Part shown: piece by piece, positions 5,075-44,700 of the stretch
Position numbering within the stretch: position 1 is the stretch's first letter
Layout: each line of letters begins with the position of its first letter
Source of the DNA: an uncultured Candidatus Izemoplasmatales bacterium
GTDB lineage: Bacteria; Bacillota_I; Bacilli_A; Izemoplasmatales; Izemoplasmataceae
Assembly: GCA_964395055.1 (NCBI GenBank)
Contig: CAYNAA010000004.1
Coordinates: 1,830 to 65,829, forward strand
Length of the DNA: 64,000 nucleotides
Direction: 5' to 3'
Notes under the pieces: model-generated
What the model was told of the DNA's origin: nothing
Seen by the model: only the letters and a program-made list of their open reading frames with translations
The model's database searches: none
Position numbers and translations under genes: made by a program

Positions 5075-5094
5075 AGCTGCCTTCTCTCCAAGGT

Positions 5095-5121: not shown

Positions 5122-5154
5122 GGTACTCCCTCCCTTTTAATGGGAGGGAGTACC
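5122..5154. other. 13-bp GC-rich stem-loop downstream of the tRNA
   Basis: GGTACTCCCTCCC, a 7-nt loop, then GGGAGGGAGTACC. No U-tract follows it on the transcribed (minus) strand. Confidence 0.7.
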
Positions 5155-5257: not shown

Positions 5258-5269
5258 TAGAATATTCTA
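5258..5269. repeat. TAGAATATTCTA palindrome, exact copy
   Basis: 12/12. Ends 1 nt before the 5' end of the tRNA. Confidence 0.9.
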
Positions 5270-6440: not shown

Positions 6441-6452
6441 TAGAATATTCTA
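6441..6452. repeat. TAGAATATTCTA palindrome, exact copy
   Basis: 12/12. Its TAG (6452-6450) is the stop of ORF 6450-6713. It lies 23 nt before ATG 6417. Confidence 0.9.
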
Positions 6453-6726: not shown

Positions 6727-6738
6727 TAGATTATTCTA
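6727..6738. repeat. palindrome variant TAGATTATTCTA (11/12)
   Basis: Lies between the 14-bp repeat array and the SD of ORF 6450-6713. Confidence 0.7.
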
Positions 6739-6740
6739 CC

Positions 6741-6852
6741 TTTAGCACAAAGTCTTTAGCACAAAGTCTTTAGCACAAAGTCCTCAGCACAAAGTCTTTA
6801 GCATAAAGTCTTTAGCATAAAGTCTTTAGCACAAAGTCTTTAGCATAAAGTC
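6741..6852. repeat. 14-bp direct tandem repeat x8 (TTTAGCACAAAGTC and variants)
   Basis: Eight contiguous units in exact 14-bp register. Variants are C/T at unit position 8, and one unit starts CTC. Lies in the predicted transcribed leader. Confidence 0.9.
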
Positions 6853-6870
6853 TTTCGCCATCATATCTCT

Positions 6871-6900
6871 ATTATATCACAGAAGTAGGTTCAATGTCAA
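6871..6900 (-). promoter_or_regulatory. sigma70-type consensus promoter reading leftward
   Basis: Minus strand reads TTGACA (6900-6895), an 18-nt spacer, then TATAAT (6876-6871) preceded by TGA (extended -10). Confidence 0.7.
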
Positions 6901-6915
6901 GTCTTCCACTATTAT

Positions 6916-6945
6916 ATTATAGTAGTTTTTTTGATCGAAAGTTAA
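6916..6945 (-). promoter_or_regulatory. second promoter, -35 abutting the palindrome
   Basis: Minus strand reads TTAACT (6945-6940), an 18-nt spacer, then TATAAT (6921-6916). Shares the 16-mer AAAAACTACTATAATA with the promoter at 27112-27140. Confidence 0.5.
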
Positions 6946-6957
6946 TAGAATATTCTA
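6946..6957. repeat. TAGAATATTCTA palindrome, exact copy
   Basis: 12/12. Lies 3 nt after the TAA stop of ORF 6961-7845 and directly upstream of the -35 at 6940-6945. Confidence 0.9.
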
Positions 6958-7977: not shown

Positions 7978-7989
7978 TAGAATACTCTA
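7978..7989. repeat. palindrome variant TAGAATACTCTA (11/12)
   Basis: Its minus-strand TAG (7989-7987) is the stop of ORF 7987-8163. It is fused to the SD as ...TTCTAAGGAG. Confidence 0.7.
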
Positions 7990-8163: not shown

Positions 8164-8783
8164 TTTTCCTCCTTAGAATATTCTAATCCCTGTTGGAGTA
8201 CATCTCTTATTGCTTGTAAGTGTTCATCCTTAGCCTTAAAACACTTACGTTGATAAACCATATACTCTATAAGCATGGGTAATTCTGTTCGTATTTCTGC
8301 GATAAAACGAGCATTGTTCTCTTTATCTTTTAGAGGTAAACTTGTCACAGATCCAGAGACTACACCTCCTCTTTGTATATTCTTTCCGTAAGTAGTGTCA
8401 CATATTAAATGAGCCTTTGAGTTATTTTCTTTAACAACCCATGGTGCCCGTGTAGCTAGATCATTAAGGGCTTCCAAATACTTTACAACATTAAAACCTA
8501 GTGTCATCATATCTATAGCTAATTCTGTAATATAGCCATGGTTGTTAAAACAATTTTCAAAGAAAGCTAATTTATTTTTATGTGCCTCACATGAATATAG
8601 GATCAAAGTTGAATGGTTAGCAGTGGTTGTTCGTAGCATAAAATTTGAGCTTACTAAATCTACGGAATCAGGATGCTCAAAGGTAATAGTCAAAGCATGT
8701 GTTGTAGATTTCTTACAAACAATACATTCTCGTCCATAAGACTCCATTTTAACTAATGCAGCATGTCCTTCATAGTAAGTCAT
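8160..8783 (-). CDS. hypothetical protein (207 aa)
   Basis: ATGA overlap with the amidase gene at 8780-8783. Palindrome 8174-8185 is embedded in its last codons (LEYSK). Confidence 0.6.
   Translation of the reverse strand: MTYYEGHAALVKMESYGRECIVCKKSTTHALTITFEHPDSVDLVSSNFMLRTTTANHSTLILYSCEAHKNKLAFFENCFNNHGYITELAIDMMTLGFNVVKYLEALNDLATRAPWVVKENNSKAHLICDTTYGKNIQRGGVVSGSVTSLPLKDKENNARFIAEIRTELPMLIEYMVYQRKCFKAKDEHLQAIRDVLQQGLEYSKEEK
8174..8185. repeat. TAGAATATTCTA palindrome, exact copy
   Basis: 12/12. Read as L-E-Y-S in ORF 8160-8783. On the minus strand it is fused to AGGAGG, 10 nt before ATG 8163. Confidence 0.9.
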
Positions 8784-11259: not shown

Positions 11260-11526
11260 TCAGCGGTCCATTGTATGAATATTGACAATACGTTTGTTAA
11301 TTTCTCTAAGATAATTTTTGGCCAAATCACTTTTAGGTAAACTAGAATATTCTAGCTCACAGTGTGAGAATCTATTCCCGAAAAAATAAGGAATAACTGC
11401 CACCGTGCCTTCTTCGTTTGTGAAGCCATCTAAAGTAAAATCACTAAGTGAAAGACTTTTTTCTTTCCCATCATTTATTGCTGCCCAAAAACGTGCAGTT
11501 AATTTTTGCCAAGATAATTCTTTCAT
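11260..11526 (-). CDS. hypothetical protein (88 aa)
   Basis: ATGA overlap with the upstream ORF at 11523-11526. Contains palindrome 11343-11354, read as ELEYSS. Confidence 0.55.
   Translation of the reverse strand: MKELSWQKLTARFWAAINDGKEKSLSLSDFTLDGFTNEEGTVAVIPYFFGNRFSHCELEYSSLPKSDLAKNYLREINKRIVNIHTMDR
11343..11354. repeat. TAGAATATTCTA palindrome, exact copy (14-bp CTAGAATATTCTAG)
   Basis: 12/12, extended to 14 bp. Lies inside a CDS. Confidence 0.9.
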
Positions 11527-13038: not shown

Positions 13039-13050
13039 TAGAATATTCTA
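13039..13050. repeat. TAGAATATTCTA palindrome, exact copy
   Basis: 12/12. Its TAG (13050-13048) is the stop of ORF 13048-13257. Confidence 0.9.
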
Positions 13051-13259: not shown

Positions 13260-14657
13260 TTAAGTCTCCTGTACATAGTAGAGTTTTTTCATTGCCCGAG
13301 TAATGGCGATGTATTCTAAGTTATCCTCTTGAATCATCTGCCATTCTTTCGTGCATTTCGGATGTGGAAGAAGCTCGGGGTGGAGCAAAAAGACTCGATC
13401 AGTTTCTAAACCTTTACTTCGATGAATAGTGGCGCATACCACACCCTCCAAATTGTTGGAGAACAATTGCTCAATACCTTTTTCAATACCTTCTCGGCCA
13501 AAGGCTTCAAGCAATGCTCTCACAGTATCCACTTTATCACGAATTGCTACCAACCGAGCTTCATCTTTAATTCGCTCAGTCATTTGTTGCTCATACTCAT
13601 CGAGATCATCAACATGCTTTACCAGCTCCAATAAGCCTTCCCCTATTTCTCGACCTTTGACAATGGCTTTGCGTTGGTTACGGATAAGGGAAAGAGCGAA
13701 TTGAACAATAGGAGCAGTTGTACGGCATAAAACATAATCCCCCTCTTGAACAGTTTCTAAAAGATCCTCACGAGAAATACTCGTGACTTGACCTTCTTCA
13801 GCATCTTCAACTGATTCAATTTGAGGGACAATCCTTTTTGCCTCTTCAACAATGGCACGAGCACAACGGTAGCATATGCTCAACGGCAGAACATCTGCCG
13901 AAAAACGTGCAACGATATTATCAATGGCATCATGACTTGCGCCGCGAAAACCATAGATCGCTTGTCTTGTATCCCCTACAGCAATAACTCGTTTTGCAAC
14001 CCGATGAACCAAATCAATCTGTGCAGGGGATAAGTCTTGAGCTTCATCAACAAATACATAGTCATAGGGGGGCATTTTGAGATCATGATATATCGGAAGA
14101 AAAATCATATCATCAAAATCAATGACTTTCTTTTTCTGGATACCTAATTTATGTGTATTGATTGCATGTGAAATAAAACTTTCATCTTGACAATTAATAC
14201 CAAAATGATCGATAAGCCAATCAATTTCTCGAGGGCTTGGTTCAATGATATTATGGGCTTTGAAAAGGGCCACTAATTGAAGAGTAGCTGAACGAATCTT
14301 AAAGAGACGTTGTTTGGCCTCTTTATCATCCTTTGGGTTATCAAAAATATCGAACCAAAGAATATTTTGATTCTTGTTATTATTGACTTTAACCCAACCC
14401 AAGTTTTTTCGGATCATTCTAAATCCAAGAGAATGAAGTGTAGAGACTTCAACATGCTGGGGGGCACGTTGGCTTAGTTCCTCGGCAATATGCTTATTGA
14501 AGGCAATAAAAAGTGTTTTCTTATCTTTTGGTAAGAATTCCAAAGCCTTAACAATTGTGCTAGTTTTTCCTGAACCAGCCACCGCATTTATTACCGCATT
14601 ACCACAACCATTCTGGATGTATTCAAACACGGCTTTTTGATATCTATTTGGGATCAT
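13260..14657 (-). CDS. UvrD/Rep/PcrA-type SF1 DNA helicase
   Basis: AVAGSGKTS (Walker A), VFVDEAQDL (motif II), GDTRQAIYGFRGA (III), TIHRSKGLE (V/VI) and ITRAMKKL. Confidence 0.85.
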   Translation of the reverse strand: MIPNRYQKAVFEYIQNGCGNAVINAVAGSGKTSTIVKALEFLPKDKKTLFIAFNKHIAEELSQRAPQHVEVSTLHSLGFRMIRKNLGWVKVNNNKNQNILWFDIFDNPKDDKEAKQRLFKIRSATLQLVALFKAHNIIEPSPREIDWLIDHFGINCQDESFISHAINTHKLGIQKKKVIDFDDMIFLPIYHDLKMPPYDYVFVDEAQDLSPAQIDLVHRVAKRVIAVGDTRQAIYGFRGASHDAIDNIVARFSADVLPLSICYRCARAIVEEAKRIVPQIESVEDAEEGQVTSISREDLLETVQEGDYVLCRTTAPIVQFALSLIRNQRKAIVKGREIGEGLLELVKHVDDLDEYEQQMTERIKDEARLVAIRDKVDTVRALLEAFGREGIEKGIEQLFSNNLEGVVCATIHRSKGLETDRVFLLHPELLPHPKCTKEWQMIQEDNLEYIAITRAMKKLYYVQET

Positions 14658-15366
14658 TATTTTCTCCTAGTAAGTAGTTTATTCGATGTCGCATACGTTT
14701 TCTTTTGTTGTTAACAGTTACTTTTGTAACTCCAAGTTGTCTGCCAATTTCTTCATCCGTGTAGCCTTCTACTCTTTGAAGAATAATTCGTTTCTCTGTT
14801 TCTGTAAAAAGATCTGAATTCAAGACCTCTTGGTATAACATTGGAAAGGCATCATCTCTTTTTCCAATATATCCTGGATGATATCCCATCTTTTCGCTAT
14901 CGGCTTCATTTCTAGGAGTAAGATTTTCGATATGCTCAAATTCTTGAAACAAATCATTTAGGTCATACTCTTTTAATTTAATAATCAGCCATGCCGAATT
15001 TATTGGGGGTGCTACGACATGATCCTTTTTTATATATGTCTGAAGATAGCCCCAGATACTTTTATGTATATAGGCAGAAAAATTGTTATGTAGAGTCATT
15101 ACCTCGTTGTTAGCAACTTTTCTTGTGCAAATAATTAAATGCAGTAATCCTTGAGCGAATAAATCTTCAGCTTTGAATGGATGAAACACGCTCAACCTAG
15201 CAGCTATGGCGGCAACCAGTCGAATATGACCTTTAATTAATTCATCGATTGCCGCAGCGTCACCTTCCCTTGCTTTTTTTAAGTAATATTGTGTCTCATC
15301 TGCTGTCAGTGCTTTAGGGGGATTTTTAATTCCCCGAAATGACCTTCTCACTTCTTCTCTCCACAA
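14644..15366 (-). CDS. sigma-70 family (ECF-like) sigma factor
   Basis: A region-2-like helix (LIKGHIRLVAAIAARL) and a region-4 HTH (RIILQRVEGYTDEEIGRQLGVTKVTVNNKRKR). No ATG in the first ~90 codons. The track start is TTG. GTG 15351 follows GGAGAGAAGAA. Confidence 0.7.
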   Translation of the reverse strand: MWREEVRRSFRGIKNPPKALTADETQYYLKKAREGDAAAIDELIKGHIRLVAAIAARLSVFHPFKAEDLFAQGLLHLIICTRKVANNEVMTLHNNFSAYIHKSIWGYLQTYIKKDHVVAPPINSAWLIIKLKEYDLNDLFQEFEHIENLTPRNEADSEKMGYHPGYIGKRDDAFPMLYQEVLNSDLFTETEKRIILQRVEGYTDEEIGRQLGVTKVTVNNKRKRMRHRINYLLGENNDPK

Positions 15367-15790
15367 TCCAAAAGATTATTGGTTCCCCTAATTCAAGTGT
15401 CTCTTTCCCAGTTACTGGATCAATGAGTAAAACATTCTCATGATCCCAAGCAAAAGCATGTGCCGGTCCTGAAGCTTGTCGTACCAATACTCCTGAGTAA
15501 TTTCGCATATAATTCCAAATTCTTGCCTTAAAGTTAGGATGCTTTCCAATAGGAAGTAAATTACCTTCAAAGTCAAAAGCTTGTATGATTTCGGTAATAG
15601 AATATTCTATATTCAAAACTTCAATGATTTCTTGTATGTGAAAACACTGATACGGAAAATCCGTGATATATTTTTTATTTAACCCCGTGTGCCCGATATT
15701 ATATATAAGGTCATTGACATCCTTGTTTGTTACCATAGCAAAAGCCGTTGGCAAACATGCACTTATATTAGGTTGTTTCTGTGGTCTCAT
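15326..15790 (-). CDS. hypothetical protein, possible papain-like/C39-like cysteine peptidase
   Basis: N-terminal Q..NISACLPTAFAM (a Q...C pattern) and a later PAHAFAWD (His). Weak, by eye only. Confidence 0.35.
   Translation of the reverse strand: MRPQKQPNISACLPTAFAMVTNKDVNDLIYNIGHTGLNKKYITDFPYQCFHIQEIIEVLNIEYSITEIIQAFDFEGNLLPIGKHPNFKARIWNYMRNYSGVLVRQASGPAHAFAWDHENVLLIDPVTGKETLELGEPIIFWIVERRSEKVISGN
15598..15609. repeat. TAGAATATTCTA palindrome, exact copy (in CDS)
   Basis: 12/12. Read as I-E-Y-S-I. Confidence 0.9.
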
Positions 15791-16086: not shown

Positions 16087-17000
16087 TTGTCTCCTTCACT
16101 GTTATCTCTATTATAACACATTTTCTCTTTTATGTCAAGAGTTACGGTTTCCGCAATCGAAAACAGTTTTGCTACAGGACCGTCATTTACGATAACGGTA
16201 TCCCATTCCGTAAAATTATCAAGAGCAGTATCTGGTACTGATGTAGAATATTCTATTCGTGGATTTTCTATCTTAAATAGCTTTCCTTTTTTCTTGTGTA
16301 TTGCTTTTGCTTCATCGGGAAACCTAACATCTGTAATAATTACAACATTAGCATTATGGGGTGTATTTAATAGATACGCTGTCCAAGTATTTTCCCAAAC
16401 TTGCTCACGTATCGCGGGCGTGCCCATTCGTATTAATGTTTCGCGTGCGGTCAGGCCCGTAGCAAGTGTTAAATCTTTATCTTGGGGCTTATATCTATAA
16501 TGCATCTCAGACCTAAATCCTGCCCAGCCATACAATCTATGACATATTTCATATAAAGGAGAAGCGAATGCAGTAATATGTGTAGTGAGACCAAGAGCAT
16601 TTAATTTTGCCGAAAGCACTAAAGCAAAAGTGTCTTTCCCTACTCCACTTTTATGCCCTAATCCAATGAAAAAAGGAATGAAGGGATAGATGACTTCTCT
16701 TTCTTTTATGGCTTTTTGATTAGTGACTTCTCTTTCTTTTGCGGCTTCTCTTTCTTTTGCGACTTCTCTTTCTTTTGCGACTTCTCTTTCTTTTGTGGCT
16801 TCTCTTTCTTTTGTGGCTTCTCTTTCTTTTTCACCAACACAACTACAAATAAGCAGTTTGCATTTATTGTAGTCCATAATTAAACCTTTTCCATGACATA
16901 AATTACAATTAAGATTTGCGTTAGGGTATTGGGGCATCTCCCCTGGATCAATACTAAAAATCAGCTGATCGTAATCTTGAGTTTCAAGCTCTCGCATCAT
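16083..17000 (-). CDS. deoxynucleoside monophosphate kinase with N-terminal zinc knuckle and KEREAT repeat linker
   Basis: CNLCHGKG. Six KERE(A/V)(A/T/V) hexapeptides. P-loop GLGHKSGVGKDT, the G..SGKDT type seen in phage dNMP kinases. Confidence 0.6.
   Translation of the reverse strand: MMRELETQDYDQLIFSIDPGEMPQYPNANLNCNLCHGKGLIMDYNKCKLLICSCVGEKEREATKEREATKEREVAKEREVAKEREAAKEREVTNQKAIKEREVIYPFIPFFIGLGHKSGVGKDTFALVLSAKLNALGLTTHITAFASPLYEICHRLYGWAGFRSEMHYRYKPQDKDLTLATGLTARETLIRMGTPAIREQVWENTWTAYLLNTPHNANVVIITDVRFPDEAKAIHKKKGKLFKIENPRIEYSTSVPDTALDNFTEWDTVIVNDGPVAKLFSIAETVTLDIKEKMCYNRDNSEGDK
16244..16255. repeat. TAGAATATTCTA palindrome, exact copy (in CDS)
   Basis: 12/12. Read as I-E-Y-S-T. A GATAAT lies 23 nt downstream on the minus strand. 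Confidence 0.9.
16722..16829 (-). repeat. 18-bp in-frame tandem repeat x6 (KEREAT linker)
   Basis: Residues 58-93 of ORF 16083-17000. A degenerate seventh unit follows. Confidence 0.85.
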
Positions 17001-17013
17001 GATGTGACTCCTT

Positions 17014-17060
17014 TACCAAAAGTTTTTACTAAGAGTTTTTACTAAGAGTTTTTACCAAAG
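17014..17060. repeat. 13-bp tandem repeat x~3.5 at a gene junction
   Basis: TACCAAAAGTTTT, TACTAAGAGTTTT, TACTAAGAGTTTT, TACCAAAGATCTC. The last unit contains the stop of ORF 17052-17945. Confidence 0.8.
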
Positions 17061-18334: not shown

Positions 18335-18641
18335 AAGTCGCCTTGATTTTGCGGATCAAGTCTTCTCGATTTTCTCCTGCCAACCCTAAAAAAGTACCTA
18401 AATCACGTAATTCATAAAGTGTTAGTGTCTCTAATTTTTGTCGTTTATGCCATTTACGCCATTTCTTCAATACTCCTAAATTCTCAGCCATAATAAGACG
18501 AACAAGTTGTTTCTTAATTCCTGTAGAAGATTCATTATAGAATATTCTAAATTCAGCGGAATTAATTAATCTTTCAATTGCTCTGAGATTATTAATCCGG
18601 TCTTTAACACTTTTAATAATATCATTTATTTGTCCGCCCAT
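18288..18641 (-). CDS. hypothetical protein (117 aa)
   Basis: Same-strand packing. Contains palindrome 18538-18549. Confidence 0.5.
   Translation of the reverse strand: MGGQINDIIKSVKDRINNLRAIERLINSAEFRIFYNESSTGIKKQLVRLIMAENLGVLKKWRKWHKRQKLETLTLYELRDLGTFLGLAGENREDLIRKIKATYGSEVKGVCTKVIKR
18538..18549. repeat. TAGAATATTCTA palindrome, exact copy (in CDS)
   Basis: 12/12. Read as R-I-F-Y. Confidence 0.9.
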
Positions 18642-21010: not shown

Positions 21011-21883
21011 TTATCTACCTGGAATACTAAGTTCTCCCGCTTTGGGAATACCTTCTTTTCTAACTTCATATACTTTACCGATCTCTGAAAAATGTGTCTG
21101 TAAGTCAGTCATTAAATCTAAATCAGAGATGTTGCCAGCTGCCCAAGCAAGCATCCTAGTGTGTATACCACTATACCCTCCAGACTCAAAATAATGATCG
21201 ATAAGATTTTGGATTTCTTCGGCTGAACGTGCGCGTGAGATTTTTGCTCGACTTTTTCGTGTGGCAACACTATCAGGAACCTTTATTTTTATGGGTCCAC
21301 TATACCCTTTTAACCGTTTATCTTTAATAGCTCTAGCAAATGCAAAACGATCACGTCTATTCTTCATGGAATAAAGTTTTCGTATTTGCTCATTTGTAAG
21401 CATTTCATCTTCAGCCATTTGCTGAATTTCTGGTTCAAGCTCTAAAAGATAAAGTCTAGGTTGAACCCAACCCGTGCTTCTTCCAATTCTTTTTTCAATT
21501 TCTCCACGATCCAATCCCATTCTAACGAATTTTGAAAGGGCATTTGCCTCTTGCATAATTGTCAAATCATGACGATCAATATTTTCTTGGAGATTTACAA
21601 TTGCAGCATCGGTTTTACTCAACTCCTTTTCACTTAAAGTAAAAGGCATTTCCTTCCACTCAAGAATTTTCATACAGGCATAACACCTGGTATAACCAGC
21701 AACGAGATCATATTTTTCCTTGATCCCCTCATGTGGTTTTACCTTGCGAATCAACGGTAATTGGTGTAAGCCTTCTTGTTTGATGCTCTTTGCTAAATTG
21801 AGAGCATGTTCATGCCTGATTCGTCCACGATTATTCGCGTCCCAATCTATGTGGACTTCATCCCATTTAAGTTTTAACTCCAT
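21011..21883 (-). CDS. ParB-like protein with HTH (paralogue B)
   Basis: LPLIRKV...YDLVAGYTRCYA gives the GxxRxxA box, followed by an HTH-like IGRSTGWVQPRLYLLEL. Confidence 0.6.
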   Translation of the reverse strand: MELKLKWDEVHIDWDANNRGRIRHEHALNLAKSIKQEGLHQLPLIRKVKPHEGIKEKYDLVAGYTRCYACMKILEWKEMPFTLSEKELSKTDAAIVNLQENIDRHDLTIMQEANALSKFVRMGLDRGEIEKRIGRSTGWVQPRLYLLELEPEIQQMAEDEMLTNEQIRKLYSMKNRRDRFAFARAIKDKRLKGYSGPIKIKVPDSVATRKSRAKISRARSAEEIQNLIDHYFESGGYSGIHTRMLAWAAGNISDLDLMTDLQTHFSEIGKVYEVRKEGIPKAGELSIPGR

Positions 21884-24786: not shown

Positions 24787-25208
24787 CGTAATACTCCTGT
24801 AGCTCTAAGTTGGTCTTCAACCTTCTTTAGCAAGATTTCTCCGCTTTTTTCCTTATTAGAATATTCTATGAGGGTTATCCAATCATAAATGGTTCCTGAT
24901 AGTATAGCTAAGGAAAAACCATACTTATCTGTATCCAAAATTGCAATATCAATCCCTGCAAATAAATCTTGCACCTCTTTTAGCATACTAAAAGGAAAAG
25001 TGCCCAAAAACAATAAGGGCGTCAATTTCGCTGCTTTTTTCTTTCCCAAATAATGTTTGAGAGTTATCGGTAAAGCTAGGAAATGATCTAAGTCAACCCC
25101 AAAATTCGCAGCTTCTTCTAAGACCCGTTCTTCCCTATTCCAATTAATGATATTTTCATAAGTAGCGGTTGCCATTGCAAAGGGTGTAATTTTTATGTCG
25201 AAAGTCAT
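24768..25208 (-). CDS. hypothetical protein (146 aa)
   Basis: Same-strand packing. Contains palindrome 24857-24868 (IEYSN), 70 nt before the SNF2 start. Confidence 0.5.
   Translation of the reverse strand: MTFDIKITPFAMATATYENIINWNREERVLEEAANFGVDLDHFLALPITLKHYLGKKKAAKLTPLLFLGTFPFSMLKEVQDLFAGIDIAILDTDKYGFSLAILSGTIYDWITLIEYSNKEKSGEILLKKVEDQLRATGVLRWWQTK
24857..24868. repeat. TAGAATATTCTA palindrome, exact copy (in CDS)
   Basis: 12/12. Confidence 0.9.
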
Positions 25209-26018: not shown

Positions 26019-26969
26019 TTATTGAGCATTTTCGACAAGGGCTTCAGATTCTTCAGCTTTCTTGGCTTCTTCTCGTTGACGACGCTCTTCAGCACGCTTT
26101 CTCTTTGCCTCTTGTTCCTGTTCCCACTTTTCACGCTCAATCTGCTCTGTTTTGGGATCAACCCGAAGAACCCAATCGATAGCGAGATCAAAAGCTTCAA
26201 CAGGCGTCATGTTGTCAGTGACAAGATCCGCGCGTGCCTTATGAGTTTCCTGTTCATCCAGAATATCCGTCTTAGAACGCACACGAGGAAGAAGTTTGAA
26301 TGTCTCAGCCCCGGCTTTCTTTCCGGCTCGCTGAGCAGTCTTGATCTGTTCAAGGCGTGCCTTTGCGGCTTCCACGAAAACTTCAGGAGACTGTTCACTT
26401 GCCCGCTTAACCCATTGAAGCTGTTCGTCTGCCGGAAGCTTCGCAAGCTGTTGAGCATTGGTAAGTGGAATATCACCATTGTCAACGCTTTCCTGAATTT
26501 CCGGTACCAACTTGGATAGATTCATACGGGCCGTGATCCAAGCGGGGGAAACATTCATTTCCTCGGCAAGCTGACTGATAGTTACATCATCATTCAGCGC
26601 CAAATAGTGCATGATCGCGCGACCATATTCCGCAGGCTTAGTCTTAATGTTATGCAGATTCGCTTGAATCTGAAGACTAAGTGTTTTGGATTCATCAGCA
26701 TCCAAAATTTGTGCCGGAATTGTATCATAATTCAACAATTCACAAATAGCCACACGCTGAAGGCCATCAATGAGGATGTAAATCTCTTCGCCGGTTTCCT
26801 CATCAATGGTCTCTCGAACGGTGATCGACTGTAAAACGCCTTCCTTTTCAATGGAACGCTTCAGAAATTCAAATTCCTCTGATTCAGTTTTGGCTTCTCG
26901 TAATGCCCTTTCACCTGCTTTGATTTTGCTTACTTGTACTTCTTCGATTCGTCCACGATTTGCTTCCAT
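26019..26969 (-). CDS. ParB-like protein with HTH (paralogue A)
   Basis: LQSITVRE...YILIDGLQRVAICELL gives the ParB box. HTH TISQLAEEMNVSPAWITARMNLSKL. K/E-rich C-terminus. Confidence 0.7.
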   Translation of the reverse strand: MEANRGRIEEVQVSKIKAGERALREAKTESEEFEFLKRSIEKEGVLQSITVRETIDEETGEEIYILIDGLQRVAICELLNYDTIPAQILDADESKTLSLQIQANLHNIKTKPAEYGRAIMHYLALNDDVTISQLAEEMNVSPAWITARMNLSKLVPEIQESVDNGDIPLTNAQQLAKLPADEQLQWVKRASEQSPEVFVEAAKARLEQIKTAQRAGKKAGAETFKLLPRVRSKTDILDEQETHKARADLVTDNMTPVEAFDLAIDWVLRVDPKTEQIEREKWEQEQEAKRKRAEERRQREEAKKAEESEALVENAQ

Positions 26970-27111
26970 GATCCTGTTTTCTCCTGGTTTGATAATAGAT
27001 CAGCTTTACCCGATCAGTAAGGGCTGGACTGATATTATTATCATTCTTCAATTAACACACAAGCCATTGTCAAATAAACGGGAATTGAAATGTACTCCCG
27101 CCGTCTATTTT

Positions 27112-27140
27112 ATTATAGTAGTTTTTCGGGAAAAAGTAAA
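27112..27140 (-). promoter_or_regulatory. leftward promoter of the divergent control region
   Basis: Minus strand reads TTTACT (27140-27135), a 17-nt spacer, then TATAAT (27117-27112). Shares AAAAACTACTATAATA with the promoter at 6916-6945. Confidence 0.5.
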
Positions 27141-27142
27141 GA

Positions 27143-27155
27143 TAGAATGATTCTA
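27143..27155. repeat. palindrome variant TAGAAT-G-ATTCTA (13 bp, arms intact)
   Basis: Both 6-bp arms are conserved, with one extra central base. Lies 2 nt upstream of the -35 at 27135-27140. Confidence 0.7.
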
Positions 27156-27160
27156 TGCTA

Positions 27161-27172
27161 CGCGCGCGCGCG
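27161..27172. repeat. (CG)6 alternating tract
   Basis: CGCGCGCGCGCG in an otherwise AT-rich intergenic region. Confidence 0.9.
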
Positions 27173-27278
27173 ATAAGAGAATAACGTCACCGAAAAATAG
27201 ATAGAAAAAGAACAGAATAAGTAGAGATATATAGAAAAGAAAAGAAAAAATTTTTATATAAAAGAGGGAATCTTCCGG

Positions 27279-27307
27279 TTGTCTATCTATTTGAAAACTG
27301 CTATAAT
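27279..27307 (+). promoter_or_regulatory. rightward promoter of the divergent control region
   Basis: TTGTCT (27279-27284), a 17-nt spacer, then TATAAT (27302-27307) preceded by TGC (extended -10). Confidence 0.55.
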
Positions 27308-27362
27308 AGAATAGAACATGTTGAACAAAACAGGCATGTTAGCTAAGCAATTGTCCCAAACC

Positions 27363-27418: not shown

Positions 27419-27622
27419 ATGTCTTGCAATGGTTGTTTTTATCTTGAATTAACCACTTGTAAATTACGGAGGAAAATGTTTTGTGGGGAATCACCTAAGC
27501 ATTTTGCTGAACGAATGCAGATCATTGTTGATTGGAACCGTAAGCATCATTGGCCACATAAGTTCGATCCAACTTATGTAAAAAATTGTACACAATTCCG
27601 TACCGCTATTCAGGAGAAATAA
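27419..27622 (+). CDS. hypothetical protein (67 aa)
   Basis: Strong SD. First gene of the rightward block. Confidence 0.5.
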   Translation: MSCNGCFYLELTTCKLRRKMFCGESPKHFAERMQIIVDWNRKHHWPHKFDPTYVKNCTQFRTAIQEK

Positions 27623-27625
27623 CTT

Positions 27626-30331
27626 ATGGAAGCCTTTTCTCAACAAACCGTCTCTGATCGACCTTTTAGAACACAGGCCATCAAGAAATTCTTAACTGAG
27701 AAATCTCAAAATAATTGTCCAGATCTTGTTGAGTTATATTCACATGACATGGAAGTTCAAGTTAATGTTGCTCAAGATTATGGGGTATTGAAGAGTCAAG
27801 AATACCGTGGCCCACAAAGCTTGTGTTACACAAATGATCTAGAAACTTGGTTTCCATTCCGTATTCCCAAAAATGCCAGTTCCGATCCTTCTTATACTGA
27901 TACCCCCATGTCTTATGATTTAGCTGAGCATGTTGAAAGTATTGGAATGACAGGTTGGAATTGGTTTGAAAAAAGAAGTATTTTTGTTGGGTATGACTTC
28001 GACTCAATTATTGGTCATCATGATGGCTTAACTCCAACGGAATTAGAAGAAGTTCGACAACGTGCAAGTGAAATTCCTTGGGTTACAGTTCGTAAGAGTA
28101 CTTCAGGTTCAGGTATTCATTTGTATGTCTTTCTTGATCTTGATATTACTGTTAATAATCATGATGAACATGCTGCCATTGCTAGAGCCGTACTTGGGAA
28201 AATGTCTCAGGCCGCAGGGTATAACTTTTATTCAAAATTGGATGTTTGTGGCCATGTTTTATGGTGTTACCATCGTAAAATGGAGGAAACAGATGGTTTA
28301 ACCTTATTAAAAAAAGGAATTAAACTCAAAGAAATTCCAAATAATTGGGCAGAACATATTAATGTTATTCGTAAACGTGCTACCCGCACATCATTACCAA
28401 TTAAAGGATCATCAGAAACGAAAGAAGCATTCAACAATATCATTTCTGAACGTAGGCAAGTTCATTTAGATGAAGGTCATCAGCGAATTATTAAAGAATT
28501 AGAGAAATATGGACGTTGTATGTGGGATGGAGATCGTCATTTATTGGTTACACACACTTATACATTAAAACAAGTACATGAATCATTGGTTCTTCGTGGT
28601 CCTTTTGATACCATTGCATCAGGATCATTACGGGGAGATGACCACAATTGTTTTTGTATACCTCTTCATGACGGGGCTTTTCTTATTTATCGTTTTGGGC
28701 AGATCGAAGAACATCATACATGGATGCAAGACCCAAGGGGTATCTCTTATTGTTATTACAATAGACATCCGAATTTACAAATCTTAGCAAAAGTGTATGA
28801 AGGAACGGAACGAGAAAAAGGTGGGTATATTTTTGAAAATGTTGAAACAGCATTACAGGTATTAAATGATCTTGGAACCCCAACAGATATAGATAAGAGT
28901 GTACATGGTCGACCTACAACACTAATAGAGACTAAGGATGGACGAATAAAAATTAAAATTCCCCGGCAAGATGCAGATCGACCAGATAAAATGAAATTTT
29001 GGGAAGCAGCGAAAGATAAAACTTGGACCCGTAGTTTTAGGCCAACCAAAAATGCCCCACCGGATTTATCCCCACGCCTTGTAGGAGATAAGGAAATTGT
29101 CAAACATATTGTAGATCATCATGGTAATGATGCAGGTTGGGTTATTTTTTCACATGGCCTATGGAATCAAGAACCATTGCAACATGTGAAATTATTACTT
29201 AAATCACATGGCTACAATTCGACTGAGATTGAGAAATTATTGGGAGAATCTATCAATAATTGCTGGACATTAGTTAATCGCCCCTTTGAACCAGAATATC
29301 CTGGTGATAGACAATGGAATAGAAATAGCCCACAATTCAAGTTTCAACCCTCTTTAACAGATGATCCAAAATATCCTCATTGGAAACTTATATTGGATCA
29401 TTGTGGTAAATCTTTAGATAATGCAGTTAGAGAAGATAGTTGGTGTAAAGATAATGGTTTATCTACAGGAGCAGATTATCTAAAATGCTGGATCGCCAAC
29501 TTATTTCAAAAACCCCTTCTTAGATTGCCTTATTTATTTTTATATGGTGAACAAAATACAGGTAAATCCATTTTGCACGAGGCATTGTCTTTACTTTTTG
29601 AGCCAGGATATTGTCGAGCTGATCTACCTTTAACAAATCCTAGTGGTTTTACAGGTGAATTAGCACATGCCATACTATGTGTGGTAGAAGAAACGGATCT
29701 TAATAATAACAGGATAGCTTATAATAGAATTAAGGATTGGGTAACGAGTTTGGAAATCGTAATTCATGCCAAAGGAAAAACACCTTATCAAATTCCTAAT
29801 GCCACACATTGGATACAATGTGCCAATAGACGTGATGCTTGTCCCATATTTCCCGGAGATACCAGAATAGTAGTTATGGAAGTAGATGCTCCTGATGAAT
29901 ATATACCTAAAGGCTTACTCTTAGAAAAATTAACTAAAGAAACGCCCGACTTCCTCTCTGAAGTAACCAAATTGCCTTTGCCTAAATCACCTGATCGTTT
30001 AGCTTTACCCCCCATTATTTCCGATCACAAAATGATTGCCATGCACGCTAATGCTACTTCTCTTGAATTATTTATTGAGGAATTTTGTTATGAAGTTCCT
30101 GGAGCTACCATTACCGTTAAAGAATTTTATGAACATTTCATTAATTCTTTGGAACCAACAGAAGCCATGCGGTGGCCTAAACGACGACTTGGTAAAGAAA
30201 TGCCTTCAAAATTCCCAAAGGGGAAGATGACAAATGGGGCTCAAATGGCCTTTGGAAATATTTCTTTTAGTCCTGGTAAAGCAACAGATAAACCTTTGTA
30301 TGTAAGCAATGATGGTTATTTAAGAAGATAA
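27626..30331 (+). CDS. bifunctional primase-polymerase / D5-like SF3 helicase
   Basis: AEP motifs VGYDFDS (DxD) and SGSGIHLYVF (sGxH). C-terminal Walker A GEQNTGKS and Walker B LCVVEE. Confidence 0.85.
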   Translation: MEAFSQQTVSDRPFRTQAIKKFLTEKSQNNCPDLVELYSHDMEVQVNVAQDYGVLKSQEYRGPQSLCYTNDLETWFPFRIPKNASSDPSYTDTPMSYDLAEHVESIGMTGWNWFEKRSIFVGYDFDSIIGHHDGLTPTELEEVRQRASEIPWVTVRKSTSGSGIHLYVFLDLDITVNNHDEHAAIARAVLGKMSQAAGYNFYSKLDVCGHVLWCYHRKMEETDGLTLLKKGIKLKEIPNNWAEHINVIRKRATRTSLPIKGSSETKEAFNNIISERRQVHLDEGHQRIIKELEKYGRCMWDGDRHLLVTHTYTLKQVHESLVLRGPFDTIASGSLRGDDHNCFCIPLHDGAFLIYRFGQIEEHHTWMQDPRGISYCYYNRHPNLQILAKVYEGTEREKGGYIFENVETALQVLNDLGTPTDIDKSVHGRPTTLIETKDGRIKIKIPRQDADRPDKMKFWEAAKDKTWTRSFRPTKNAPPDLSPRLVGDKEIVKHIVDHHGNDAGWVIFSHGLWNQEPLQHVKLLLKSHGYNSTEIEKLLGESINNCWTLVNRPFEPEYPGDRQWNRNSPQFKFQPSLTDDPKYPHWKLILDHCGKSLDNAVREDSWCKDNGLSTGADYLKCWIANLFQKPLLRLPYLFLYGEQNTGKSILHEALSLLFEPGYCRADLPLTNPSGFTGELAHAILCVVEETDLNNNRIAYNRIKDWVTSLEIVIHAKGKTPYQIPNATHWIQCANRRDACPIFPGDTRIVVMEVDAPDEYIPKGLLLEKLTKETPDFLSEVTKLPLPKSPDRLALPPIISDHKMIAMHANATSLELFIEEFCYEVPGATITVKEFYEHFINSLEPTEAMRWPKRRLGKEMPSKFPKGKMTNGAQMAFGNISFSPGKATDKPLYVSNDGYLRR

Positions 30332-30534
30332 CTCATTCTTAGAGAAAGGAAAGCTTAATGAGCAAGGTTATTTGGGTTTATTCCCCAGAAAAAGAAAATA
30401 TATTTTTTATTATAATGGGAAGGAAATTGGTTTTGAAGTTAATGTATTGATTTAGAAGAAATGGGTTTTGCTAAATTAATATGATAAGAGCAAGAAAAAA
30501 ACTTGAGGGCTTTAACAATAGAGGAAAAAGAACA

Positions 30535-30891
30535 ATGAAATTGATAAAGAGTGATAATGGGGCAGTAGTTTATTTGGAAGCAGAAGATCTTGCAGAAGGA
30601 AACCTGTTAAAAGGTTTTATGGCAACATCTGCTGCCAGAGAATGTCATTTAAGGATTGAAAAAGGAGTTGTTAGGTTATATGCTGAACATTTTCTAGGCA
30701 ACATTAATTTGATTGAATTAAATACTCATTATGAAATGTATCCTAATGATAAAGAAACAAGAGCCTTTATTATGGATGTAATGCAGCATGGGGGTGAGAT
30801 TGTTGGGACTTTACATCAAGATGGTGAAACATGTGAACCTTTTATAAAGTTCACAAAAAGAAACCCAAAGACAAGGAAACAAGAAGAATGA
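30535..30891 (+). CDS. hypothetical protein (118 aa from ATG 30535)
   Basis: GAGGAAAAAGAACA precedes ATG 30535. ATGA overlap with the methylase start. Confidence 0.5.
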   Translation: MKLIKSDNGAVVYLEAEDLAEGNLLKGFMATSAARECHLRIEKGVVRLYAEHFLGNINLIELNTHYEMYPNDKETRAFIMDVMQHGGEIVGTLHQDGETCEPFIKFTKRNPKTRKQEE

Positions 30892-31730
30892 TAACAGAAA
30901 AACAGCGTAAAATGGAGATTCTTTTGGGTTTAACATCTAGAACACAACGTTCTATGGCTCCGCCAATGAAATATCCTGGATCTAAGTATAATTCATTACC
31001 AGAAATTTTGCCAGAATTACCCTATACTTCAATGTATGTAGAAGTTTTTGGGGGTGCTGCAACGGTTTTATTAAATCGTGCTCCTGTTAATTTTGAAGTA
31101 TACAATGATCGTTTTTCGGGGATAGTGGCATTTTTTCGGGCTGTACGGGATTACCCTTTTGAATTGATAGCAAGAGTTGAATTAATGCTACATTCAAGAG
31201 AAGAATGGGAACGATGTCGTGCAACTTGGCATCAACCTAATATTGGTGTTGTAGAAAGAGCAGCTAGATGGTATTATATGACACGATATTCTGTTCTTGG
31301 AAGGGGAGATTCGTGGGCAAGAATTAGAAAACCTGGATTGCCAATAGCAAGTAGTATGAAGAAAAGACTTGATCTACTTCAACGAATTGCTGATCGTTTT
31401 GAAAAAGTACAAATTGAAAATTTGGATTGGCGCGAAATACTAAATGATTACGATCATCCACAAGCAGTATTTTATTTAGATCCCCCTTATCTTAATTCAA
31501 ATAGAGCTGGATACAAACAATCAATGACTGTTAAAGATCACAAAGAAATGATCAAACAAATAAGTGAAATGAAAGCATATGTAGTATTATCAGGGTATGA
31601 GAATGATATTTACAACGTTGATTTTTGGGATCGCAAGAAAACTTGGGCGCGTAAGGATAATGCTTCAGTGATACTAGGAGAAGGAATGGGCACACAATAT
31701 GAAGTATTGTGGATAAAGGAAGCGCGATGA
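30888..31730 (+). CDS. dam: DNA N6-adenine methyltransferase (Dam/D12 class)
   Basis: KYPGSKYN, VEVFGGAATV (FxGxG) and FYLDPPYL (the DPPY catalytic motif). Confidence 0.85.
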   Translation: MITEKQRKMEILLGLTSRTQRSMAPPMKYPGSKYNSLPEILPELPYTSMYVEVFGGAATVLLNRAPVNFEVYNDRFSGIVAFFRAVRDYPFELIARVELMLHSREEWERCRATWHQPNIGVVERAARWYYMTRYSVLGRGDSWARIRKPGLPIASSMKKRLDLLQRIADRFEKVQIENLDWREILNDYDHPQAVFYLDPPYLNSNRAGYKQSMTVKDHKEMIKQISEMKAYVVLSGYENDIYNVDFWDRKKTWARKDNASVILGEGMGTQYEVLWIKEAR

Positions 31731-32377
31731 AACACCTCAATAATCATATCCTATGTTCAATTGTTACACGTAAAAGCGGTTACGACCCTGTAATGAATGA
31801 ATTAGTAGAGTTTCTTATTTTACCTTTGGACTTAGGATTAAATCCTTCAAAGGATTTACCTTTTCATGGAGTTATAACTCCGCAATCTGAGGAAGGAAAA
31901 TTACGTAAAAATTATCGAGAATATCTTACGAAATATGGTTTACATCCTGATTTACTAATAACGACTTTTGAAAATTGGTATCAAAAGTTACAACTAAGAC
32001 ATAATAAGAGAATTATCCCTTTAGCATATAATTGGCCAGAACAATTGATTTTTCTTAGAAATTGGTTTGGGTATACCGCCGATGGCTTTCCACATATGTT
32101 TGACTTTTTTCACGAAAAAGAATACAGAGATCTATTTCCAGTAAGCCGTTATTGGAATGATTTATTATACATGAATGAGGAGTATACCCCTTTTACAAAA
32201 CTTGAATTTCTTCCAATTTGCTCAAAACTAGGAGTGCCGCACCCAAAAGATGCGACACTCTTATCTGAAGCAATAGCCTTAGCTAAAGCATATCAGAAAA
32301 TTTCAAATTTATCTATTCCTCCAGGGGTAACTCTAGATCTTCATTTTCCTGATCCAATTGACTACGAAGAATCATGA
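31727..32377 (+). CDS. catalytically degenerate paralogue of the DEDDh exonuclease
   Basis: Collinear with ORF 22257-22841, but DVETGG becomes IVTRKSG, NWSFD becomes NWPEQ, and HTARGD becomes KDATLLSE. ATG 31727 overlaps the Dam stop (ATGA) and follows AAGGAAG. Confidence 0.45.
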   Translation: MKHLNNHILCSIVTRKSGYDPVMNELVEFLILPLDLGLNPSKDLPFHGVITPQSEEGKLRKNYREYLTKYGLHPDLLITTFENWYQKLQLRHNKRIIPLAYNWPEQLIFLRNWFGYTADGFPHMFDFFHEKEYRDLFPVSRYWNDLLYMNEEYTPFTKLEFLPICSKLGVPHPKDATLLSEAIALAKAYQKISNLSIPPGVTLDLHFPDPIDYEES

Positions 32378-41784: not shown

Positions 41785-44700
41785 TTATGCGGGTTGAATC
41801 CTTATGCCAAACAATTTGACATCATCCGTAAGATCATCACGAGTACATTTTAATCTAAAGATAAAGAATGGTCCATCTCCTTCTGGAGTAAAAGTATATT
41901 CTTTCTTCTCATAACCAAAAGTATTCCCATCAGATGTTGCTATCGCTGTTTCATCAGTTGGCCAATAAGTTTCAGCTTGAGAGGGAAAACCATCGGTAGG
42001 ATTTAATGCTTTTGCTCCGAAGTTCCAAAATAACCTTTCATCCTCAGATCCCCCATGCCAAAAGATTGTGAGTTTAAGTACGCCCCCTGCATATTCATCA
42101 GGTGGTGCAAAAGTCCACACATAGTATTCATCATCTGTTTCAGTAAGTTCTAAATGAGGGGCAACAAAATTCTTAAAAATATCAACTGGTCCATAGTTCA
42201 TTTCACCTAAGCGTCCTGCTTCTTGGGGAGCAAACCAATGTGACCATAATTTATTAACTGCTCCTACTCCGCCTTCAATAGTACCAGTAATCGTTGTTGT
42301 ACCATCTAAATTAACCCTATCATTGAAGTTAGTCTCATTTTCAACTTCAATTGGTCCACTTGCTGAATGTATAGGGGCACCAATTGTAATAATACTATCA
42401 GTTATCGATGTATTTCCAATTTCCAAATTCGGTAAAGAGAAAGACCCAACGGTAAGTGTTCCGTCAATATTTACATCTCCTGCAAAGATAGAAGTAACAC
42501 CTGTCCCTAATACTCGAATTTTTTCATCAGTTACAATTGTACCTTTTGCTTTTATCTCACCATTTTCATAAAGAGTTGCACCAGAATCCGCATATCCACT
42601 GCCGACTTGAATTTCATCGAAGGCAAATAATCCACCTGTATCATTGATGATAGAGCCACTTACAGTTAAATCACCTGCAATTTTGAGATCACCATTTGTA
42701 TAAATTGTAACTCCACCGTCATCGAAACCCTCAGTATTTCCTATGGGATTTATTTTAAGGTCGGTTTCACTTATAAAATCAAGATCACCAGTAAATGTTA
42801 AACTACCATAAAATTCACTAACTCCTTCCATCGTAAATTTAAGTTGATCAACACCATAATCAGATAACTTTAATTGATTATCATCACTGATCCGATAAGT
42901 TAATTCCCCTATATCTGGGTAATATCTAAGCCAATGGCCCTCTCCGCTGGTAATATATATATTATCTGGCTCTAATGTAATAGTATCACCAATAGTTAAA
43001 GTATTATTAACAGTCATGGTATCAACATTTTGATCTGCTGTACCACCTCCAATAATACTTCCATCGATCTCTAAATCTCCTGCGATTTTAATCTTTGTAT
43101 TTCCATCATCTGATATCGTTATACCGCTATTATTATATCCACCCAGAAAATGAACACTATTGGCAAAGTATACATGCCCAGCAAAATTACTATCTGTCCC
43201 CGAGTTAGTTTGATTTAATTTATCAAAAGTTATTTTTCCTACTCCACCTGTTTTTTCAATTATTACTAAACCATCGCCAATACTTAAATAATTAGCAATA
43301 TATACAGTCCAATTAAAGTCACTTCGATCATTGAATGTGGCTGTTCCATCTATTTCCAAATTCCCCGAAACATCTACTTCAAATTGGTTAGAATCTCCGA
43401 CTTGAAGAGTATCAAATACTCCTGTTGATCCACCTCCCCCTGAATTAATTGTCCCATCAACTGTTAAATCACCGCTAATTTGAATATTTCCATCCGCTGA
43501 AATTGATACCCCACCGCCAGTATAACCATAGTCACTTCCATCTTTACCAAGATCAATTCGAGCAGTATTAGATGGTAGAATAATATCTCCATTGTTGTAT
43601 CCTGTTATCCCTGCACTTGTGCCTACGATAACAGCACCGCCGCTAGGAGTATCCCCAGCAGAATCTGATCCAACATTTATTCTAGTAAGAGCACCAATTA
43701 AATCGTCAGTATGGATTCGTCCAGCAGATATAATTCGTCCGTCTTCATAAAGATCTGATCCACCATCGTCATAACCTCCACCAACAGTTAAGCTAGTGAA
43801 AGCATTACTGGGATTACTTGGATCAATTTCTGTGCCATTAAGAATTAATGATCCGTCTATAACTACGTCACCAGCATCTGTCATAGTAATATTACTACCA
43901 ATAGTTAATTGCGTATCTGTATGAATATTATTATTGGTTTGGAATAAGCCATTTGTTGATATCGTTGCACCGGCGCCGCCACCATATCCTCCACCAACAG
44001 CCAAACTTTCTACTGCACTTACATCTCCCCCATCCCAACCAATAATATCACCACCAATCTCAAGATCACCAGTTAATACTATTGTTCCGTCACTCTTAAT
44101 AATTACGCCAGTAGTTGTGTGGTCTCCTGCTTCAAGATTACCATCGGTTTGTACATTACCACCTGGAGTAACAGTTAAACCTGTATCACCATAACCTCCA
44201 TATAATAGGATATTAGTATTATTTGCTTCAAGATACTCCCCGCCAAGAATATTACCATCAGTGCTTAAATCTCCATTTCCATCTATTGTTAATCCTGTAT
44301 CACCATAACCCCCTCCAATAATAATACTATCAAACTCATTCCCGCCAGTTCCACTTCCACCATTAATAGTTCCATCGACAGTTAAATCACCTGCAATTTT
44401 TAGATCACCATTGGCTAAGATAGATACCCCTCCTTCATCATACCCATAGGAAGAATAATCTAGAATCCCGCCTATATGAATATCTTTCTTAAAGATACTA
44501 CGATCAGGTAAGAAAGTAAACCAATTACTTAAAGTATCATCAACAGTATAAAAACGAATTTCATGGACATCACTAGCTTCTGATCCTGGCGCATTATTAA
44601 AAGATATTTCTCCATTGATTCTTGACCCATCATATTTATGTGTAATTTCAGCATTATCATGTAAAAACCATATATGACAATTTCCACTTGCTCCTGTTTC

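Follow-up and report, generated by a model that had tools for sequence, protein, structure and literature searches.

Three related promoters and a dispersed 12-base palindrome, a candidate operator, in an uncultivated tailed phage

The 64,000-nucleotide (nt) stretch analysed here over its full length (the window; contig CAYNAA010000004.1, positions 1,830 to 65,829) is part of a 72.7-kb contig, has a G+C content of 38% and originates from an uncultivated tailed phage. It carries three related promoters, which we call A, B and C, and a 12-base palindrome, TAGAATATTCTA, that adjoins this promoter family and recurs at many other positions. Minus-strand genes from ~27,000 down to 700 form the early/replication arm and encode a ParB-like protein (ParB1), an SNF2-type helicase, RNase T, a second ParB-like protein (ParB2), PolA, a deoxynucleoside monophosphate (dNMP) kinase and a sigma factor, together with a UvrD-type helicase, a ligase, a PD-(D/E)XK nuclease and many small open reading frames (ORFs). 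The plus-strand genes at 27,419-32,377 include those for a primase and a Dam-class methyltransferase, and the structural genes occupy 32,961-64,000 on the minus strand. Searches of INPHARED gave no megablast match, no tblastn match for the DNA polymerase and at most 38% identity for the helicase, so the phage is without a close cultivated relative. The best non-self helicase match is 57% identical. A profile search of genome contigs with the ParB1 alignment found one metagenome-assembled genome at 36% identity, from which no host can be assigned. The strong AGGAGG ribosome sites, the TRTG '-16' motifs and the combination of a SigF/G/K-like sigma factor with Noc/Spo0J-like ParB proteins point to a host that is probably Firmicute-like.

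Promoters A and B lie on the minus strand. The first-pass annotation had described an identical layout at 6916-6957 and 27112-27155, namely a palindrome, 0-2 nt, a weak -35 element and a 17-18-nt spacer leading to the -10, and rereading the sequence confirmed it. At site A (6957-6916), TAGAATATTCTA (6957-6946) is followed after 0 nt by TTAACT, 18 nt and TATAAT; promoter A itself (6916-6945) has its -35 at 6945-6940, its -10 at 6921-6916 and the conserved block AAAACTACTATAATATAATAG at 6929-6909, and stands in tandem with, and upstream of, a consensus promoter at 6900-6871. Site B (27155-27112) reads TAGAATCATTCTA-tc-TTTACT-17 nt-TATAAT, with the palindrome at 27155-27143, 2 nt before the -35 of promoter B (27112-27140; -35 at 27140-27135, -10 at 27117-27112, conserved block at 27125-27105). 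The first gene downstream of promoter B is that of ParB1 (26969-26019). Promoter C, absent from the earlier description, lies on the plus strand at 27279-27314; this 10/12 promoter combines a -35 TTGTCT (27279-27284), a 17-nt spacer and a TG-extended -10 TATAAT (27302-27307) with the conserved block AAAACTGCTATAATAGAATAG (27294-27314), and is directed at gene 27419-27622 and the primase gene and arm. Promoters B and C thus form a back-to-back pair, 138 bp apart, inside a 450-bp divergent region.

After their 17-18-nt spacers, A and B have the minus-strand ending AAAAACTACTATAATA in common, and the 15-mer AAAAACTACTATAAT is exact at both sites. An exact 16-mer repeat is by itself unremarkable in 64 kb, and promoters A and B taken alone are ordinary. 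The similarity is wider, since the 21-nt consensus AAAACTRCTATAATANAATAG has three perfect matches in the window, the third being at C, versus 0.07 expected with up to three mismatches. All three promoters are oriented toward downstream genes, agree with the -35 consensus at 4/6 positions, have a -35/-10 spacing of 17-18 nt and follow the form TTnnCT-17/18-...AAAACTRC-TATAAT-AnAATAG, in which the -10 is overlapped by a conserved sequence of dyad symmetry (CTAT...ATAG).

The palindrome or a relic of it stands 0-2 nt upstream of the -35 in each of the three. The copy at A (6946-6957, 0 nt from the -35 and, on its other side, 3 nt from the stop codon of the PD-(D/E)XK nuclease gene, 7845-6961) is exact. 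The copy at B (27143-27155, 2 nt upstream) is a 13-mer, TAGAAT-G-ATTCTA, enlarged by a central base that reads G on the plus strand, and is the sole spaced variant in the window. At C (27266-27277, 1 nt upstream) a degenerate element, GGGAATCTTCCG, remains, whose inner 8-mer GAATCTTC agrees with GAATATTC at 7/8 positions. From base composition we expect the exact 13-mer ~0.02 times per window by chance and put, by hand, the chance of a relic as good as that of C at that position at ~0.4%, so the association of the palindrome with the -35 is unlikely to be accidental. If the start is assumed to lie 7 nt after the -10, the centre of the palindrome falls at -42.5 in A and in the degenerate C and at -44 in B, close to the ~-42 proposed originally.

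Counted over the window, the palindrome occurs in 16 exact and five one-mismatch copies versus 0.53 expected. Its two halves are separated by 0 nt in 16 copies and by 1 nt in the 13-mer at B, no other spacing being present; half-sites show no enrichment in the window, no conserved flank was found around the copies and the -35 scores upstream of them equal background, which led us to reject TAGAAT as a -10 served by its own -35. As RNA, the palindrome folds with -1.9 kcal/mol only, and RNA structure was likewise rejected as its role. Nearly all exact copies (15/16) lie in the early/replication arm, between 712 and 24,868; nine of these 15 fall in the 6% of the arm that is non-coding and a tenth in the last 25 nt of a gene. 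The usual site is a gene junction, where a stop codon, the palindrome and a directly following Shine-Dalgarno sequence precede an ATG 10-23 nt on, and the downstream edge of the palindrome is 10-44 nt from the next start codon. Five copies (712, 2101, 6441 and 13039, exact; 7978, one mismatch) supply the TAG stop of the upstream gene. Most copies have no promoter downstream, with coding starting within 10-23 nt or the copy itself being intragenic, and this lack of room for a promoter speaks against the earlier idea of a palindrome-dependent promoter class. A perfect, invariant 12-nt dyad with no strand-specific context argues for recognition as double-stranded DNA by a homodimer. A literature search on the palindrome sequence yielded PCR primers only. 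A metagenome scan for two palindromes 140-170 nt apart gave 21 loci, none window-like by blastn; those inspected consisted of simple repeats, satellite-like arrays or AT-rich non-coding DNA.

The leftmost exact copies are found at 712-723, where the palindrome supplies the stop of ORF 858-721 and is followed by a Shine-Dalgarno-like GAGGA and an ATG, at 872-883, 13 nt upstream of ATG 858 with an abutting Shine-Dalgarno sequence, and at 1036-1047, in the intergenic DNA upstream of the promoter at 943, with a 27-nt tandem repeat on one side and G+C-rich hairpins on the other. Those at 2101-2112 and 6441-6452 provide the TAG of genes 2295-2110 and 6713-6450, each 23 nt upstream of a start codon (ATG 2077 and ATG 6417, respectively). 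Two exact copies 163 bp apart flank a tRNA-Leu(UAA) gene (5170-5256, minus strand): one, at 5258-5269, ends 1 nt upstream of the tRNA 5' end, and the other, at 5095-5106, follows the tRNA and a 13-bp G+C-rich hairpin (5122-5154) and precedes ATG 5074 by 20 nt. An Rfam search recognised the tRNA only. Two one-mismatch copies also occupy junctions, TAGAATAATCTA (minus strand) at 6727-6738, which ends an array of 14-nt repeats 13 nt upstream of ATG 6713, and the copy at 7978-7989, which contains the stop of gene 8163-7987 10 nt upstream of ATG 7967. The exact copy at 8174-8185, 10 nt before ATG 8163, is the one that falls within the final 25 nt of a gene (8783-8160), and that at 13039-13050, carrying the stop of gene 13257-13048, precedes a strong G+C-rich hairpin, a Shine-Dalgarno sequence and ATG 12994. 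Six exact copies are intragenic (11343-11354, 15598-15609, 16244-16255, 18538-18549, 24857-24868 and 47930-47941). With frames read by hand, the gene-internal copies at 8174, 11343, 15598, 16244 and 24857 encode x-E-Y-S-x and those at 18538 and 47930 x-R-I-F-Y; the third frame would give a TAG stop.

A second promoter class lies on the minus strand of the same arm. Two full-consensus promoters had been recognised before, TTGACA-18-TGtTATAAT at 914-943 and TTGACA-18-TGaTATAAT-AGAGATA at 6871-6900 (16 nt downstream of promoter A), and we found a third, TTGACA-17-TGtTATAAT-AGAGATA at 16110-16138, within the 3' end of the dNMP kinase gene; their common form is TTGACA-17/18-TGnTATAAT. As noted at first for two of them, none of the three has a palindrome at -42, and each has one within ~150 bp upstream (1036, 6946 and 16244), ~130 nt from promoter 943 in the case of 1036-1047 and ~140 nt from promoter 16138 in that of 16244-16255. 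At promoter 943, a further palindrome (872-883) covers ~+24 to +35. The division into two promoter classes suggested by the first-pass annotation therefore holds for sequence, with three members each, and is not supported for the 'palindrome-dependent' property of one of them, the core of which is conserved without the palindrome in the relatives described below. Promoters 6871-6900 and 16110-16138 share TGTGnTATAATAGAGATA and so make up a second family of repeated promoters. A 14-nt tandem repeat (ACTTTGTGCTAAAG, minus strand, 8.3 copies), each unit of which carries AAAGnCTTT, fills the leader from promoter 6900 to gene 6713 at 6740-6855. In the related locus L004 (20016-20058), a palindrome-like site downstream of the PD-(D/E)XK gene is followed by TTGACTGTGCT repeats at the contig end, and the repeats of both loci could be iterons or protein-binding repeats. 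Five more tandem arrays (678-712, 1057-1131, 1306-1344, 2307-2350 and 17012-17055) have units of 13-27 nt in 2.3-3.5 copies, the unit differing in each; the first four lie within the first 2.4 kb of the early arm.

IMG/VR scans with the ParB1 protein and with the palindrome plus Shine-Dalgarno sequence gave no matches or chance matches. Syntenic ParB1 homologues have the primase on one side and ParB, helicase and PolA on the other. In L012/L013 (ParB 53% identical) the divergent promoter pair is present, with TTTACT-17-TATAAT preceded by AAAAAACTAC on the ParB side and AACTACTATAATATAGT on the primase side, and in L037 (ParB 49% identical) both promoters read TTTAGT-17-...AACTACTATAATAGTATGA. 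Over seven promoters of three genomes whose ParB proteins are 49-53% identical, AACTRCTATAATA is invariant, the -35 is TTnnnT and AACT(A/G)CTATAATA is unchanged, in surrounding DNA that is barely alignable. This invariant core is strong comparative evidence that A, B and C belong to a genuine and conserved family of functional promoters of the sigma-A/sigma-70 type. The two copies of each genome also agree downstream of the -10, which suggests either concerted evolution or a genome-specific factor acting at the -10/start region. A more distant relative, L014, has different promoters.

None of the orthologous promoters in L012/L013 and L037 has the palindrome (L012 has only a 9/12 match, 7 nt off), and the quality of their -35 and -10 elements equals that of the window promoters; the core promoter therefore has, on this indirect comparative evidence, no need of the palindrome. 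The same observation undermines the class II activation proposed by the first-pass annotation, since an equally weak -35 is conserved with the core where no palindrome is present. Enrichment of TAGAATATTCTA was not seen in L002, L004, L005, L012, L014 or L037, and the TAGGATATCCTA-like sites of L004 (2 versus 0.5 expected) are not significant.

Scanning IMG/VR with a ParB1 alignment yielded 31 syntenic loci, and several of these have an iterated, perfect palindrome of their own. AGTTAnTAACT occurs 20 times in the 20.9 kb of L040, GATTAWTAATC 17 times in L061 and 12 times in L059, and CTCTAnTAGAG seven times in L060, while L051 and L058 have smaller sets. Among L040, L059, L060 and L061, for which non-coding enrichment was tested, it is significant in L040, L059 and L061, and in these three the palindromes are concentrated within a few hundred bp of the ParB1 gene, on its upstream side. 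Some copies in L040 are placed, like those of the window, at stop/Shine-Dalgarno junctions. Two palindromes frame a TTGATG-18-TAATAT promoter of L061, one 1 nt before its -35 and the other 2 nt after its -10, over the start site; this is the classical architecture of repression. The abutment of a palindrome on the -35 thus recurs with a different palindrome, and the lineage-specific sequence implies a co-evolving DNA-binding protein. Two further repeats were seen in these loci: several inverted and direct copies of TATATAAGGACTTA, besides AGTTAnTAACT, upstream of ParB in L040 (9200-9480), and, in L014, where no palindrome is iterated, 12 dispersed copies (up to one mismatch; e.g. 8754, 9794, 9923 and 16104) of the asymmetric 11-mer ATTGGATCATT versus ~0.3 expected by our estimate.

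Both ParB-like proteins of the window contain ParB_N and HTH_ParB domains. ParB1 (316 amino acids (aa), 26019-26969, minus strand) has a DGLQR motif and lacks ENxxR; ParB2 (290 aa, 21011-21883, minus strand) has the canonical GxxRxxA and ENxxRxDL, the CTP-binding boxes of ParB. Among proteins of solved structure they come closest to Noc and Spo0J, and they match KorB weakly (E about 1e-2 to 1e-3). ParB1 appears to be the best candidate for the protein that binds the palindrome, given that its gene adjoins the palindrome clusters in L040, L059 and L061; note that its promoter in the window has the 13-mer variant only, versus clusters of the respective lineage palindrome at the same place in those loci. 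Among 40 early/replication ORFs, Pfam revealed no other helix-turn-helix protein, small helix-turn-helix regulator or KorA-like protein. The phage also encodes a sigma-70-family sigma factor (14644-15351, minus strand) with SigF/G/K-like regions 2 and 4, whose best matches are the sporulation sigmas SigF, SigG and SigK; it is a possible user of other promoters, and no link between it and the palindrome was found.

The surroundings of promoters B and C have further features. The leader of promoter B contains a terminator-like 9-bp hairpin followed by UUUAUUU (27072-27102, minus strand, ~+4 to +34), which could be an attenuator or a 5' stabiliser, and the leaders in L012 and L037 likewise begin with hairpins. 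In the divergent primase/ParB region (27156-27278), long purine runs of the AAAGAAAG type accompany an alternating (CG)6 tract (27161-27172); GCGCGC tracts recur in L012 (3960-4110) and L037 (160-235) and purine runs in L012 and L014 (9370-9440). Besides being a promoter region, the divergent region may be a replication origin. Elsewhere in the early arm, the palindromes at 2101 and 5095 enclose a G+C-rich island (2400-5100; 47-60% versus a window value of 38%), whose ORFs are without family matches. In the structural region, an ORF of 3419 aa (41785-52044, minus strand) has no Pfam match and a weak PHROG match to a distal tail protein, and adjoins a tape-measure-like ORF of 1996 aa (52041-58031, minus strand). 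The 3419-aa ORF bears no RNA polymerase signature and the flanks of the palindrome are unconserved, and we rejected on these grounds a promoter for an N4-like phage RNA polymerase.

Taking the sequence data together, we favour, with roughly even confidence, a reading in which A, B and C would be host-type promoters and the palindrome a separate, dispersed operator for a lineage-specific homodimeric phage protein, the ParB-like protein encoded directly after promoter B being the top candidate. Host RNA polymerase would use all three promoters, B and C starting the ParB-like/replication arm and the primase arm and A serving as an extra copy in tandem with a consensus promoter. A phage dimer would bind the palindromes as double-stranded DNA; the sequences and their statistics, conservation and positions are observed, and binding, the identity of the binder and the direction of its effect inferred. 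At A and B, and weakly at C, the bound protein would lie against sigma region 4 and the alpha C-terminal domain, where it could contact or occlude the polymerase and damp initiation. Such tuning would probably be repressive and, at B, would amount to autoregulation of the ParB-like operon. At the junction and intragenic copies, the protein could act as a roadblock or use the palindrome as a loading site, limiting read-through in the early arm and shutting down or partitioning early/middle transcription.

Several observations weigh against this proposal. B has an extra central base and C is degenerate, so that neither would be a good site for a rigid dimer. The -42.5 centre coincides with the classical class II activator position and would suit activation as well. 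The junction copies stand where RNA 5' ends are expected, one of them 1 nt before a tRNA, which fits a promoter or processing signal. Finally, ParB1 and ParB2 orthologues occur in every relative examined, most of which show no iterated palindrome, and no window gene is specific to the palindrome-rich loci among the 31; the binder may thus be another protein, possibly a small and unrecognised one.

The first alternative is that a class II-type activator binds the palindrome near -42 and makes up for the weak -35, so that the promoters form a palindrome-dependent class, perhaps a middle one. Class II sites include those of CRP and FNR at -41.5 and that of lambda cI at PRM, and the arrangement here resembles them in having a dyad-symmetric site near -42 that abuts a sub-optimal -35: the palindrome or its remnant is there in all three class members, centred (on the assumed start) at -42.5, -44 and -42.5, and the -35 hexamers fit at only 4/6 positions. 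Unlike in those systems, relatives retain the core and lack the site, the orthologous promoters of L012/L013 and L037 having a -35 that is just as weak. The site mostly lacks a following promoter, as coding starts within 10-23 nt of most copies and leaves no -10 ~25 nt downstream, and the corresponding palindrome of L061 lies over the start site as well. Moreover, a perfect TATAAT with 17-18-nt spacing should suffice for basal activity. We consider this explanation unlikely, and the palindrome appears more likely to be the binding site of a repressor or a ParB-type protein than a class-defining activator site.

Of similarly low probability is a role of the palindromes as parS- or NBS-like loading or anchoring sites for a ParB-family CTPase (ParB2) in DNA organisation, segregation or membrane attachment, their proximity to promoters being incidental in a genome where non-coding DNA is scarce. 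The ParB-parS and Noc-NBS (Noc-binding site) systems and the dispersed centromere sites of phage N15 each combine a ParB-family helix-turn-helix protein with several near-identical scattered palindromes; parS has 16 bp and NBS 14 bp, and their sequences differ from the phage palindrome. ParB2 retains both GxxRxxA and ENxxRxDL, the two ParB proteins are Noc- and Spo0J-like, the palindromes are near-invariant and perfect as in parS, NBS and the KorB operator, and intragenic copies occur. In contrast to these systems, no ParA gene was seen in the 64-kb window and the copies are limited to the early arm and tied to promoters and gene junctions, two or three of them lying 0-2 nt from a -35; in relatives, clusters bracket a promoter.

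Still less probable, in our view, is that the palindrome marks RNA 5' ends, either as a -35-independent promoter for a phage sigma (TAGAAT being the -10 and the start the next base) or as a site between cistrons at which an endonuclease processes the RNA. In its favour, many copies are directly adjoined by a Shine-Dalgarno sequence, only 1 nt separates one copy from the mature 5' end of tRNA-Leu, the strong hairpin 2 nt after the 13039 copy resembles a 5' stabiliser and the phage encodes a sigma factor. A strand-specific signal, however, needs no perfect 12-nt palindrome (chance ~1 in 4096), and the copies are without a -35 or flank conservation; six exact ones are deep in genes, the RNA hairpin is negligible, and at A and B the palindrome is upstream of a complete promoter. 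Least probable of all are recombination or endonuclease targets bounding exchangeable gene cassettes, such as the core of a site-specific recombinase or a homing site: copies of near perfect uniformity do bracket ORF 858-721, the tRNA, ORF 6713-6450 and ORF 8163-7987, with three spacings of 160-164 bp and the G+C-rich island between the copies at 2101 and 5095, but genes for a recombinase, integrase or transposase were not found, palindromes and compositional boundaries fail to match exactly, and the clusters of relatives surround a promoter.

The operator reading has counterparts in known systems. The repressor of the temperate actinophage phiC31 binds conserved inverted repeats (CIRs) of 17 bp, which are highly conserved, include the operator of the regulator's own gene and have many intergenic copies; unlike in that system, no homologous repressor is detectable in the present phage. 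The comparison with KorB of the IncP plasmid RK2, made in the first-pass annotation, proved apt, as the phage encodes two ParB/Noc/KorB-like proteins, one of them driven by promoter B. Both systems have an element-encoded ParB-family protein and a short, near-invariant palindrome iterated many times. KorB operators (OB) lie 4-10 bp upstream of their target promoters, or 45 to >1000 bp upstream, and at PkorA of RK2, OB is directly upstream of the -35 while the KorA operator (OA) is over the -10 (PMC11790492). In RK2 as here, some copies are directly upstream of a -35, including that of the regulator's own operon promoter, at which the window has only the 13-mer variant, and others are distant or intragenic (PMC11790492); the conserved sequence over the -10 of the phage promoters recalls OA. 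The copies of the window range from those 0-2 nt off the -35 of A and B, through some ~80-150 bp upstream of the consensus promoters, to six inside genes. Differences are that the element is here a phage and not a plasmid, that its site is a 12-mer without a central base versus the 13-bp OB core, that no KorA-like partner was identified and the similarity to KorB is weak, and that many phage copies occupy stop/Shine-Dalgarno junctions downstream of promoters.

A second counterpart is provided by the stoperators of Cluster A mycobacteriophages, the sites of the L5 gp71 repressor. L5 has more than 20 copies, in promoters and short intergenic spaces, and these are proposed to block both initiation and elongation (PMC9283540). 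Common to both are one short site dispersed in promoters and short co-directional intergenic spaces and a site sequence that varies among related lineages. Stoperators are asymmetric, orientation-dependent 13-mers bound by a monomer, whereas the phage site is a perfect, orientation-neutral palindrome; no repressor or lysogeny module was recognised here, and the host is in this case probably a Firmicute. The phage system is a demonstrated member of neither the KorB-OB nor the stoperator systems.

A bolder extension, which we regard as doubtful, is that a ParB-family protein governs transcription genome-wide in this clade, as a KorB-like CTP-dependent sliding clamp or as a palindromic repressor of the stoperator type. 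Each lineage would have its own palindrome planted 7-20 times, at junctions and beside the -35 of divergent promoters, the early arm would be silenced or partitioned, and the lineage sequence would confer immunity or incompatibility specificity. Overall, the analysis yields a conserved promoter motif, TTTAcT-17-...AACTACTATAAT, and a candidate operator for an otherwise unannotated phage group, and more interest attaches to the junction palindrome, iterated and lineage-specific in a clade of ParB-bearing phages, than to the promoters. At least four different palindromes occur in the syntenic genomes of the clade; these natural specificity variants provide material for studying the co-evolution of DNA-binding specificity and regulatory site sets. 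If the palindrome is a ParB-type operator, global silencing of the KorB kind would reach beyond plasmids into a phage clade, and the palindrome would represent a palindromic counterpart of the mycobacteriophage stoperators.

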